A stretch of 63,539 nucleotides of DNA, counting the filler, from Reclinomonas americana ATCC 50394 (lineage: Eukaryota): the NCBI GenBank assembly GCA_048213135.1. It is 15 parts of 15 records of this genome, joined end to end, with 100 filler letters (N's around TTAATTAATTAA, not from the genome) between each part and the next. Parts side by side here need not be neighbours in the genome. Positions count along the whole stretch, not along the records: positions 16,440 to 26,550 come from AFZH01023553.1; positions 26,651 to 29,849 come from AFZH01023554.1; positions 29,950 to 41,373 come from AFZH01023556.1; 12 more parts are not named here. One strand, 5' to 3'. Below, one piece after another: positions 20,674 through 30,290 of this stretch (position 1 is its first letter; the number at the start of each line of letters is the position of its first letter). The position numbers were made by a program, and so were the translations under genes. The notes under the pieces are model-generated. The model was not told the DNA's origin. It searched no databases and saw only the letters and a list, made by a program, of their open reading frames with translations.

Positions 20674-20957
20674 CACAGCGGGGCTCGTGCCGGTCGCCCT
20701 GACGTCGGCGTGACTCCTGGGGTCAGCCCGACGTCGGCAGACGTCGGCAGCCGGCAACCGGACATGGCGGCGGCCGCCCTCCTCCCGACATCTGCTGACT
20801 CCGAGTGCGGAGTCGGCGGGAGGTCCGCCCGAGTACGCCGAGTCATCCCGACGTCCGACTGAGGGTGGTGATACAAAGAGAGCCGAAGTGTACACAGATC
20901 TGTACAAAACAAACAGTGCTGTATTGCAGGCCTCAGCCGTAACCCTGACGATCACAG

Positions 20958-23900
20958 TCAGCTACTAGACGACACGTTGCGCGGCCGCCGTTTGCCGCGG
21001 CCCAGATTGTCGGGTTGTTGACCCCACACGCCTCCAGACGAAAACCACTCGTACAGCTCGTCATCTTGGATGCCTGAAACCCACGTTCGAAATCCCTCCC
21101 GATCGTGCTTGGCGGCCTTGGCCCGCAGATCTTGAATAATTGATCGACGCCGCTCGAAAGCTGCTTCGAACTCTGCAGCAGCAACATCGTCGTCTCCATC
21201 GCTGCCGCCCTCCTCGTCGCCGTTGTCACCTTCCTCCTCGCCGTTGTCGCTCTCCTCGTCGCCGCTGTCGCTCTCCTCCTCGCCGTTGTCGCTCTCCTCC
21301 TCGCCGTTGTCGCTCTCCTCCTCGCAACTCATGCCTTCCTCCTCGCTGCTGGCGCTCTCCTCCTCGCTGCTGGCGCTCTCCTCCTCGCTGCTGGCGCTCT
21401 CCTCGTCCGGATCCTTCGCCTCCGCCTTCCGAAGCTTGCGCTGCGTTCTGGATTCGCTGGCTGCGGGGCGTCGGCGACTTGACGCTGCAGGACGACTTGA
21501 AGCTGAAGCAGCTTGAGAACCAGCGGCAGCGGTCGAACGTGCACGAGGGCCTTTGCTCGCACGTGGACGCACACTGGACGTCACAGTGCGCTGTTGCTTC
21601 GGGCCGGTGGGTACCCGAGCAGCGTCCCACACTTCGTTCCCAGCAACAGTCTCACTGGGCGCGGCAGCGTCGTGCACGTCGGCTGGTACACCCCACGCCG
21701 GCGGACCCCAATCGACGATCACCCGATCGCACTCAAACCGAAGACGGTCGAGAACATTGTACCGATTGTGTAAGAAGTAACACATCCTGGGCTCCTTATG
21801 AAACACGTGCTGCGAATACGCAAGTACACCAACAACAAAGTGAGTCACAAGAGCACGGTGTCTGCAGAGATCTCGCATTCCTCACCGACATGACGAGAGG
21901 TCGGCTGGTACATGAGCGCGGACCGAGCTGTCGCTTGACGGAACACTTGCTGTCGCACATGTGTACGAAGTGAGAAAAACTGGATTTGAATAGAACCGCA
22001 GCGTCCGCGACAATCAAATTGCGCGACAAAGTAAACCTGCAGAGGAGAAAGAGCACGATAAGTACAAAGACAGTCAATCAATCGACAGTCAACGGACGAG
22101 TGACACGAACACGAAGCAACGTGAGAGTGGATCGAATCGGTGCCGACCTGCCGTGTCCACAACAGGTAGCCAAGGCCGCAACACCACCAAGATGCGCTCG
22201 AACACCTTGGATTCGAGTTTCTCCTTTGGACGCAAGTCACCGGTAAAAAAGGTTTGCACCCGGAAGTAGTACACCGGCAAGACGACCTTGTCGTGCGCCC
22301 GCAGGTTGGCCGCTTGATGCACCGCTTCGCGCAGACACCCATCGACATCGGGAGTCAAAAGACCCACCGTCTGACCAGAGTCAATCTGCATTCGGTCGCC
22401 GAATTCCACGCGACCAAACAAGTTGTACCTCCGTTCCCTGCGGTTATCCCAGCGTATGCCACATGAATGAAAAACGTGTACATGGACCGCACTATTGCAA
22501 TCGTTGGTGGCTAACCTGCTGGCAGAGTACCGCCGATCTTCAGGGTTCGAGAATGTTATGTTGTCGGGATCGGCGGCATGCGGTGTCGAGCCTTCCGACG
22601 CAATGGCCGACAGGAGTTCGTCAGCGTCGACGAACACGCGGTTCCTGTTGCGCCACTTGAACTTAGAGACTCGAAGCATCGGATTTCCGGCATCATCCTT
22701 GAGGGAGGCAAGAGCACTTGGTGTGCCACTCCGCTTGTCCAGCACTCGCGCAAATGCAGGGTGCTTTCGAATAGCGACAAAGCGGGGTCCGGCCACGACT
22801 CCATCGACGCTAACACCGTTCGACAGCAGTTCCAGTAGTTCACTCGCCGCACGATGCGCAAGGACGCACTCGTACTCATTCTGATGATTCGATCCGCGCA
22901 GGTCTCTTCTCTCACCACTGCCCACGCAGTTGAAAGAGGTGAGGAACAGGAGTGTCAACCCATGATACAGACTACTGCCAGCGCAACTTGTGTAGCTTCT
23001 CCCCGGTTGCTTCGGTGACGTACGTCATCATACCAGCGGCCTCCTCTTGTGCAACGATGTGCAACAGTGAGTGCGACTTGTACGAGTCAACATCCAATTC
23101 TGTTGCAAGAACCGACGCTCTGCGAGTACGGAGGGCACTCAAAATCAGGCAATCTCACCAGAAACAAGAAGAGGGTACTTGTACTCGCACTCACCCCATC
23201 ACTGCGCGCATCATGTCGATCGTGCGCGCGTAGAATGGAGTGTCGCTGGTGTCTCTGTGAGACGGGGAAGCATGCGAGTGTAGATCCGCCAGAGCAGAGA
23301 AAAGCAACAAAGCTGGTCGCTCCTCGAGCAGCTCACGAATCTCTTCGTCGTCCATGCGTTCCAAATCGTCGCCAATGACAGCTGCGGTCCCACGGTGCAC
23401 GCAGTCAGGAACAAATATAAATGAGCAAGAAGCATGCAGCAGCGATGGGCATAAAAAATGAAGCCACACACCACGGAGTGAGAAAGGCACGGTCGATAAG
23501 CTGGCCACCCAGTCCCGCCCAAAGAAACAGCCAGACCGGTTCGCAAACGAGAAGATGACTCGCGCAAGCGACGGATCGTGGCCGGACATGGCGGATATGA
23601 AGTCACCAAGTTTGTGCATTGCGCCTTGCATGCCCTTGTTTCCAAGCCACGAGGAAAGCGTGGCAACAAGTGACGAACGAAAACGCGGAGCAAGACCCTC
23701 CGCAATTACGTGCAGCAGCACCGGAAGAAGAATATCGGCGTGCGGCTACGCAACGGACGAATGAGTGAGAACACGTGACCGGACAAGAGTGTGATCTCGT
23801 GGAACGCAACGTTGAAATCTGGAAAGTCAATCAATGCAGGTCGATGACCTCGCTCACCGGCAACTGCGAGCAGTCTTGACGTCCGCCTGCGATCCCAGCA

Positions 23901-27572: not shown

Positions 27573-29353
27573 ATGCCAAAGGGGAAAGAGATGATGGAAG
27601 AGAGTGATGACGAGTCCACGCGTACGGATTCGAGTTCTGATGACGAGGAGAAGGAGGAGGAGGAGGAAAACGAAGAGGCCTCGGACGATCGCGAACACCG
27701 CGCGCGCCGCCACCCGGCCCCACCACCTGCAAGTTGTGATTTCGCGCGCGCGCGAAAGTTTGTGTGCATATTCTTGACTTGCACTTTCGCTCACTGTGTG
27801 CATCCACGCTGTGATCAGAGGCATTCCCCCCTCGTTCTGCAATGCTCAAGGCGCCAGCTCCGGCAGCCGGTGTCGCAAGTGCCAACCGGAAACGCCCTGC
27901 AGCTGCACCTCACGAGGACGATCATGACGGCTCGCCGCCGCAGAAGAGGTCTAAGGTTCCCAGCACGCTTGGCGAGTTTCTCAAGAGCAGGATTTCCGCT
28001 CCACGCTTCGAGGTCTTTGGCCCGGCTGGTCTGAAGTTTTTCAATGAGGACGGGTCGGTCAATGGCGTCATCAAAGGCACCGAGTTTCTTGCCACCGTGC
28101 AGTGCGAGATGATGTCCACGCAGATCGCCTTCCTGCGGCAGTTGACCAGCTCTGTGCAGGAGAACAGCAAGCTGCTCCAGGAACTCGTGCAGCTCCAATC
28201 TGGCCGATGCACCGACATTGACGACAACACAGTGGTAAGCCGCACAGAGTTGTTTGTTTCCAGTTTCGTTCTTGGAACATACTTCATTTATGTGTTCTCA
28301 CCACAACACACATCGCGCAGAAGAAGGTGTTGGTCCCCGACATGCGCGACAAATTCCGCCAGGCCGTGGACTCTGGTGATCTACGACAACTCCAACTCTG
28401 GTACGCCAAGGACGACAGCGTTATCAAGGGACTCATCGCTGATCACAAAAGTATCGCGCACTTGGCCGAAGATGATGAGGTGATCGCCAATCTCGCCGGC
28501 GGTCGCGGCACCAGCGGATCAAGATCTGGAAGCGAGCGCACAACGGTACAGTTGTTGCTTCATTGCGTGCTGCATGCGGGTGTGTTAATACTGCGTTCAT
28601 CAGTCAACCGTTCTACTCACGATTGCTCCGGCTGTTCGTACACAGTTCGCGCATGGTGTCCACACTGCTGTATCAGCACTGCACTCGCCTCTCAAGAACA
28701 TCTGCAAGTCGGTTGCTGACGATAGTGGGCAATACTCGTCGCTGCGCGAGTTCAAGGAGGCCATCGCGCAACGCGACTTCACCACCGGCAGCAACCTCGA
28801 AAAGGTATGTGGTACTGTCGTATGGAACGCGATTGCAAGTCTGCTATAGCTATTTTGCAGCGTTGCTTATAATTATTCCATCTGCGCTGCGGCAGCTGAA
28901 GTCTGCCGAGAGCCATCGCGCCAATGCGCTCACTGCGCGATGGGCAGACCAACCCAATTCTCGTCGTACATTCGGCTTGTTGGTTCGTGCATGCAGTGCT
29001 GTGTGGTGCTCTCTTCAGCCATTGGCCAATCACTGATTTCGCCATCACTGCAGTTGTGTGCCTTGCATAACATGGGTATTAAGGCCAACAAGCGCGACAG
29101 GAAGTTCGGTGACGTTTTATCTTACTGGATCAACAAAGGCGTGGTCAACCTGGTCAACACGCCTGACGAGAAGCTGTTCGCGGACATGGCAGCCGATCAC
29201 GACGGGGGTGTTCGACTTCCGCACCTTCCGTGGAGCTTTCTGTGCCCCCCGGCAGTGCGCCAGGCCAATCCCGCTGAGCAAATGGTGGATGATGCTGTGG
29301 AAGGAAATGTCGGCGGGCAGCAGGTGGGGTTGGTGGACGACTTTGCTGACTGA
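27573..29353 (+). CDS. Transposon accessory gene, multi-exon, unknown function
   Basis: ATG lies 132 bp from the divergent transposase ATG. It has an acidic N-terminus, NLS-like 'RKRP...PPQKRSK', a coiled coil, and exon blocks separated by short GT-AG introns. Confidence 0.55.
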
Positions 29354-30290
29354 GCCGGCGTGCAGTGGCGACCGTCTGCGTTGCGTAGATACATAGACTG
29401 ATATGTGAGCTCATCATGAGTGATCTTGTCTGTTTAGAGATCAATGAAGCCGGAGGCAATGCTTATGTATGCATCAATTGTATAGCATGGCAAGCAGAGT
29501 GATGGGGAGCGGGAGCGGCGGGGTGGTCGGCAGGCGAACCAGGCCCGCGGCGGGCTGGGCAGGGTGGCTCGGCAGGATATCGGGCGACCTCGGGCGGACG
29601 TCATGGGGAGTCCGTGCTGAGGAGGGTCGGGGCGAGTCATGGCTGACGCCCGAAAACCCGCTGTCAGGGCGAGGACCGGCTGACTCGGCACTTAAGGGCG
29701 AGTCCGACGGACGTCTGGCCGATGTCGGGCTGACAAATGCCGACTCGGCGGCCGCACAAACCAGAATGCTCTGATTTCCTCGGCCTGACCTCAGCGGACG
29801 TCCGGCCGACTCGCCCCGACCTCAGCAGGACTGGACGATCAACCTTGTGNNNNNNNNNNNNNNNNNNNNNNNNNNNNNNNNNNNNNNNNNNNNTTAATTA
29901 ATTAANNNNNNNNNNNNNNNNNNNNNNNNNNNNNNNNNNNNNNNNNNNNGGCATCGCCACGAACGCTTCTGGTGTGCAGTCTGGTCACTCGAAGTGCTGG
30001 CGACCGCACTGCGCGCCACTTTGCACGCGGTGTTCGCACAAGTACGCAGTGGTGTTTACGTGAGTCGCGCACTCCCCCCTTTTCGCACTGTTGGCGACTC
30101 TCCGACACCCAGTCGGCGATGGTTGGACGACGGGTCGGCGGTGTGTTTTGATCCACATCTCACTGTGTCGCCGACCAAAAATCGTCGGTTCTGAGTACAC
30201 CCCCACCGGCGCTTTCCTTGGACGGTGTGTCCCGGTCAAAGCGGACCCGCGGACCACCGTGACGGTGAATTCCGGGCAAATCTAATCGGC

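Follow-up and report, generated by a model that had tools for sequence, protein, structure and literature searches.

The window analysed here is a 63,539-nucleotide stretch of Reclinomonas americana ATCC 50394 DNA (assembly GCA_048213135.1), composed of contigs joined by 100-base spacers. At positions 20674..29849, it holds a DNA transposon carried by two contigs of the 108-Mb assembly, C8086 (window 16440-26550) and C8087 (26651-29849). The element measures ~9.1 kb, to which a gap in the assembly of undefined size must be added, and has two head-to-head genes between imperfect inverted ends. Its left boundary was set with empty sites and its right boundary with a second copy, found as two pieces (L003 and L004). 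These two copies are referred to as family A; families B and C are sister families in the same genome. The host is an intron-rich eukaryote. An earlier reading, made without database searches (the sequence-only reading), had described the locus as a two-gene, intron-rich CMC-type DNA transposon, a description that is supported: genes of 17 and 6 exons, CAC ends and the motifs of the CMCT clade were all found.

Genes and protein motifs

The transposase gene (20958..27440, minus strand) is predicted to encode 1578 amino acids. Its 17 exons lie at 27440-27219, 27060-26778, 26228-25999, 25929-25582, 25497-25309, 25230-25138, 25071-24742, 24666-24570, 24494-24369, 24299-24111, 24025-23811, 23745-23472, 23381-23195, 23119-22976, 22917-22111, 22036-21886 and 21809-20958, and their order, along with several of their boundaries, is common to the sister families. 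All 16 introns are GT-AG, the phases are consistent and the 1578 codons contain no internal stop, in agreement with the minus-strand gene (27440-20958) proposed earlier. The introns are 58-158 bases long, and intron 2 holds the assembly gap. Of the 15 introns without a gap, nine measure a multiple of three bases, which we take as chance, the families differing in this respect. In three sequencing runs, nothing was placed on 27200-29849. A 21-bp tandem repeat in the coding sequence (window 21200-21404) yields an acidic tail of the transposase.

A C2H2 zinc finger (27055..27290, minus strand) is predicted at the N-terminus. It is split by intron 1, so that the first splice completes the pattern C-x2-C-x13-H-x5-H, as the sequence-only reading had stated, and its W, C, C, F and H are conserved in 3/3 families. 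That reading had called the finger matrin-like; this part is probably wrong. The finger exon of family B passes the Pfam BED (zf-BED) cut-off (21.2 bits vs 20.6, E 3e-4), exon 1 of the window element and of family C not passing it, and a BED finger is more likely than a matrin finger.

The catalytic region (22976..24666, minus strand) contains the candidate residues D592/D594 (24588-24580), D682 (24174), C698-x2-C701, H944-x3-H948 and E964/E968 (23013-22999). The motifs SDYD, TDGPE, LLHVIAEG, KxHxLxH and TEATGE, all listed by the sequence-only reading, are in frame. Their order, K-x-D-Y-D, D-G-P-E, C-W-W-C, H-x3-H and E-A-x-G-E, is conserved in the relatives: CWWC (24126-24115 here, the C(2)C motif) is present in 8/8 aligned rows, H-x3-H in 4/4 rows of exon 14 and the second D in 7/8 rows. 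The sequence-only reading had noted neither the C(2)C motif nor the TA target described below. Judging by the spacing in RAG1 and Transib, D594 and E968 are the favoured catalytic candidates over D592 and E964. About 285 residues separate the second D from the E, and both C(2)C and H(3)H lie between them, as demanded by the CMCT clade, which comprises En/Spm, Mirage, Chapaev, Transib, Plavaka and ESTA (defining motifs per PMC12730594).

The second gene (27573..29353, plus strand) has six exons (27573-27732, 27819-28234, 28321-28545, 28646-28804, 28896-28982 and 29054-29353) and encodes a predicted protein of 448 amino acids, to which no family could be assigned; PDB sequence searches with its profile gave no meaningful match. 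Its homologous exons in families B and C are 21-25% identical. Since the gene is old and always head-to-head with the transposase gene, it probably serves the element. The two start codons are separated by a 132-bp spacer (27441..27572), presumably a bidirectional promoter, which is 83% conserved in the second family-A copy L003 (contig C11478). That copy retains the spacer, most of its second gene having been removed by an internal deletion.

Ends, target site and sister families

The element opens with CACAGC at 20674, and its termini are of the CAC...GTG type, in keeping with the 5'-CA..TG-3' termini of the CMCT clade. The left terminal inverted repeat is imperfect and 43 bp long (20674..20716, plus strand); the right one (29808..29849, minus strand) stops at the contig end. 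When the left end is compared with the reverse complement of the right end (from 29849), 29/43 columns are aligned alike with one gap, a score reached by 0/2000 shuffles (42 nt). The imperfect inverted ends of the sequence-only reading were thus confirmed. In family B, the ends are 16/19 identical. The left subterminal region (20717..20870) is rich in CCGAC/GACGTC and the right one (29515..29807) in CCGAC/GACTC. In the two end regions, CCGAC occurs 15 times vs 1.7 expected and GACGTC 14 times (both strands counted) vs 0.4 expected. The enrichment in subterminal repeats claimed earlier is therefore present, but these are short dispersed words and not tandem arrays.

The element interrupts a 5'-truncated piece of a non-long-terminal-repeat (non-LTR) retrotransposon, corresponding to its restriction-like endonuclease end (20460..20673, plus strand). 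This host piece gave 40 scored matches among 92 genome candidates. In 14/14 of the copies examined, it is uninterrupted and runs past the TA at 20672-20673 into the host continuation, which fixes the boundary at 20674 and makes this TA host-derived (plus strand). A longer copy of the host repeat (L067) has R2 as its best protein match, a weak one (E 0.14). The host piece and its nearest copies are 94-95% alike and both element frames are open, so the insertion is fairly recent. At the right end, the single further copy (L003 and L004) is 91% identical and ends with GCTGTG, followed by TA. The termini of these transposons are frequently located within or next to 3' pieces of R2-like non-LTR retrotransposons (window 19824-20673, C8088 (L005), L025, L026, L004, L104 and L106); this could be a target preference or merely a matter of repeat-rich nests.

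Among independent end junctions of family A and the sister families, 11/12 adjoin TA, against a background of 1.7%; the exception is the left end of the copy on contig C208. The family B junctions come from 13 left-end matches (5 without the terminus and 2 with a repeated flank) and four right ends. A pattern search for further ends gave two terminal remnants, one of which is followed by TA, and two chance matches. None of 29 further contigs or stretches held a copy with both ends intact, and a search for the ends of family C did not find them. The collection of copies called for by the sequence-only reading has defined the target through TA junctions and an empty site; a duplication on both sides of one insertion was not seen, and the duplication of TA, which would lie within the 2-5 bp of the CMCT clade, is deduced from these two lines of evidence. 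One locus (L048/L073, on C410 from 18638 downward) has a family-B-like left end after TA, followed by an unrelated gene fragment of spliced appearance in three tandem copies. Neither a transposase nor a right end was found there, and a cargo-carrying derivative is possible.

Using exon 10 as the query, 18 further loci were identified at 46-68% identity. Family B is represented by 11 loci, 84-97% alike in DNA, many of them with frameshifts or stops, and contig C3201 represents the more distant family C. On single contigs, both families preserve the order of the exons, the exon with the finger and a second gene placed head-to-head. Between families, the proportion of synonymous differences (pS) is ~0.8, so that synonymous sites are saturated, and the nonsynonymous proportion (pN) is 0.24-0.36 (two or three exons). 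Two loci (L087 and L088, on C12740 and C12889) form a fourth subfamily with ~72% DNA likeness to family B. In family C, a further long open frame beyond the second gene (L034:7700-8800) is possibly a third element gene.

Database searches and relation to known transposons

The RNase H fold of the catalytic core is only weakly supported by modelling. A model of exons 8-10, with the introns read through, had a predicted local distance difference test (pLDDT) score of 49 and showed a strand-strand-strand-helix-strand succession with two D after strands, an RNase H-like order. The ten best Foldseek rows for this model were seven RAG1, including the best, two Mos1 and one other, and DDE transposases or integrases made up 22/43 of the listed rows. 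With VIA-align, the best Z was 2.8 and none reached 5. The model of exons 12-14 was all helical (pLDDT 45), with no fold match. For the relative P0004, the Atlas neighbours bearing a Pfam name were RAG1 RNase H (0.91), Transposase_21 (0.90) and Plavaka (0.89), and exon 15 gave no usable match there. We regard the fold and Atlas results as consistent hints, short of proof.

A phmmer search over 1.84 billion representatives, with a query interrupted by introns, retrieved two true relatives, both fragments of one Logan contig, and no fungal or animal protein. A third match, P0005, was rejected as a repeat protein. Word-index protein searches found no relative except P0004, and a metagenome scan gave 597 pattern matches, 0 of them confirmed. 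A viral match (L072) was also rejected, being a radical-SAM-like phage gene with only the CWWC word in common; this phage contig carries a queuosine-type biosynthesis gene cluster.

Based on the ends, the target and the motif order, we consider it very likely that the element is an autonomous-looking, apparently intact cut-and-paste DNA transposon of the CMCT clade that targets TA. Several observations weigh against this assignment. No named transposase was matched significantly in sequence or fold: the best Foldseek value was E 0.36 on the pLDDT 49 model, Pfam on 19 exon frames and intron-spanning read-throughs gave nothing relevant, PDB sequence searches with the core profile gave nothing meaningful, and the Atlas recognition of 2274 is under the threshold of 2300, with shared features below 170. 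The gene models are predicted from sequence. The sole copy whose two ends share a contig (C208) has GG at the left and TA at the right, and one of the two terminal remnants precedes TT. Moreover, the element's ends are only 67% alike, and the window copy has L in the D-L-H motif where 5/5 relatives have D; because of these two features, present activity is in doubt despite the open frames. The sequence-only reading had named the lack of an RNase H fold, single-copy termini and non-adjacent contigs as grounds for giving it up. None of these was established, yet the left end of family A is single-copy, without a second match in the assembly, and fold support is weak.

By analogy with known CMCT enzymes, the 1578-residue protein would bind both inverted ends. 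D594 (or D592), D682 and E968 (or E964) would hold two metal ions in an RNase H fold, with a zinc site formed by C698, C701, H944 and H948 within a helical insertion. The element would be excised, probably with hairpins left on the flanks; RAG and Transib leave such hairpins. Its ends would then be joined to TA with a 2-base stagger, and repair would duplicate TA. The second gene, driven from the 132-bp spacer, stands at about an even chance of supplying an accessory factor for binding to the CCGAC/GACGTC words of the subterminal regions. Such a factor would be TnpA-like, as TnpA binds subterminal words in En/Spm.

Two recently named groups come closest to this description. ESTA, EnSpm-like transposons with TA target-site duplications from rust fungi (PMC12730594), resembles the element in its TA target, CAC-N-R-Y ends, size (7-14 kb), C(2)C together with H(3-4)H lying after the second D and before the E, and RAG1 likeness, through which ESTA was likewise recognised. 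The CAC-N-R-Y pattern was read off 37 ESTA entries in the supplement, all of which fit (37/37), and 2/37 open with the same nine bases as position 20674. The family A left end, the L004 right end and the family B right end also fit, and the family B left end and the last contig bases of the window do not. No sequence link to ESTA was detected, the likeness being judged on its description and not on its proteins, and Pfam found no TET/JBP-like gene on the element's exons, a difference from ESTA. CNEST, from Cryptococcus neoformans, has a TA duplication seen in new insertions and ends that start with CACGG (bioRxiv 10.1101/2025.05.19.654958, PMC12810828), as does the right end of family B. It resembles the element in its TA target and its CMC-type DDE core, in the element a putative one, and had no Repbase hit when described. 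CNEST is 7.2 kb long with 33-bp ends and one annotated gene, whereas the element has 9 kb, imperfect 43-bp ends and two head-to-head genes, and no protein match between them was found.

The element most likely works like ESTA and CNEST, but it is too divergent in sequence for placement in either. That it is itself a distant member of one of these clades, extending the clade to a new host, has a probability that we put slightly short of even. The TA target, the CAC ends and the size are all alike, and the ESTA starts and the CACGG of family B add to this; the phmmer result, with neither fungal nor animal proteins, and the misfit of the family B left end to CAC-N-R-Y argue the other way. Alternatively, and more doubtfully, families A-C would be a separate undescribed CMCT lineage with a core nearer Transib/RAG1 than En/Spm, which gained strict TA targeting independently of ESTA/CNEST and needs a conserved head-to-head partner of a new family. 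In that case, a RAG-like transposase of two components would exist outside animals and fungi. Transib and RAG1 gave the best of the weak fold and language-model matches and have the zinc motifs in common with the element, the similarity not being significant. Transib makes a 5-bp duplication and is not known to have a head-to-head partner gene.

An ordinary En/Spm (CACTA) or Plavaka element is improbable and already largely refuted. En/Spm does share CAC ends, a spliced transposase and a second gene with the element (PMC4158355), subterminal repeats are a further point of likeness, and the Atlas lists both families at 0.89-0.90. Plant CACTA elements, however, have CACTA/TAGTG ends, a 3-bp duplication and 1-6 exons, up to 11 being cited for maize (PMC4158355), compared to 17 exons in the transposase gene here. 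Instead of CACTA/CACTG ends and a variable 3-bp site, we found CACAG, CACGG, CACCC and CACGC ends at a fixed TA. Transposase_21 (PF02992) does not match the element, whose gene is cut into short exons, but matches four other loci in the genome, three of which were compared and lack profile similarity to the element's core. These four (L109-L112, on C8071, C7673, C5335 and C2080) are separate classical En/Spm-type transposases. Plavaka resembles the element in its CMCT motifs, large size and accessory genes (PMC12730594, bioRxiv 10.1101/2025.02.11.637652), but its TGT..ACA or CATCA..TGATG ends (PMC12730594) are absent here and its profile PF18759 matches nothing in this genome. The label "Plavaka-like" used earlier is not supported, for these reasons. 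The available part of PMC8245031 yielded no Lanisha features.

A still less probable explanation is a chimera of two unrelated contigs. The join between C8086 and C8087 (26551..26650) is an artificial spacer bridged by no read, with (GA)n tracts and contig ends of low quality on either side; because it lies inside intron 2, the true length of the element is uncertain. Adjacent contig numbers are not always neighbours, the next contig having given no continuation in four checks around family B ends. In two other cases (C3116-3118 and C5297-5299), consecutive contigs tile single family B copies in order. The exon phases match across the gap, and the beginning of C8087 is similar to the low-quality tail of C8086, with 11/2404 controls equally good. 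In addition, a short repeat is cut immediately to the left of the retrotransposon piece, and C8088 starts one base past that cut point; at three other loci, the two halves of this repeat are contiguous. These findings suggest nested insertions, with C8086 followed by C8087, the collapsed remainder of the retrotransposon and C8088. Families B and C, which have finger exon, core and second gene in the same order on single contigs, also speak against a chimera, and in the worst case the halves would come from two copies of one family. C8086 and C8087 are very probably adjacent.

Finally, another TA-duplicating superfamily (Tc1/mariner or PHISTA) or a domesticated host gene pair is the least probable of all, for although the target is TA and Mos1 is among the weak Foldseek rows, the ~285 residues that separate the second D from the E, C(2)C with H(3)H, the CAC ends, the clean insertion into a retrotransposon and the many dispersed decaying relatives all contradict it.

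Novelty and other contents of the window

In the literature found, as far as those sources were available, CMC elements that target TA received their names no earlier than 2025-26, and only those of basidiomycete fungi have been characterised; ESTA appeared in one paper and CNEST in one work. None from a protist was found in the literature searched, subscription papers, Repbase and Dfam being outside its coverage. The family had been called undescribed: the lineage does appear to be so, its kind (ESTA, CNEST) having already been described. On present evidence, there is no new mechanism, and the element is a divergent variant of a recently named kind. At least three diverged families coexist in the genome; they share the target rule, a BED-like finger at the N-terminus and a conserved partner gene. 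If these families are kin to ESTA/CNEST, that group is older and reaches further than has been described; otherwise, TA specificity evolved more than once within the clade from which RAG1 arose. The intact two-gene copy makes the role of the partner testable.

Elsewhere in the window, intron-less amidohydrolase, AAA_21 ATPase, glutathionylspermidine synthase and GlmU-like genes (2950-4377, 7639-8880, 59946-61112 and 62442-63539) probably belong to bacterial contigs mixed into the assembly. The stretch at 42400-44740 holds an intron-rich host gene for lysyl-tRNA synthetase.

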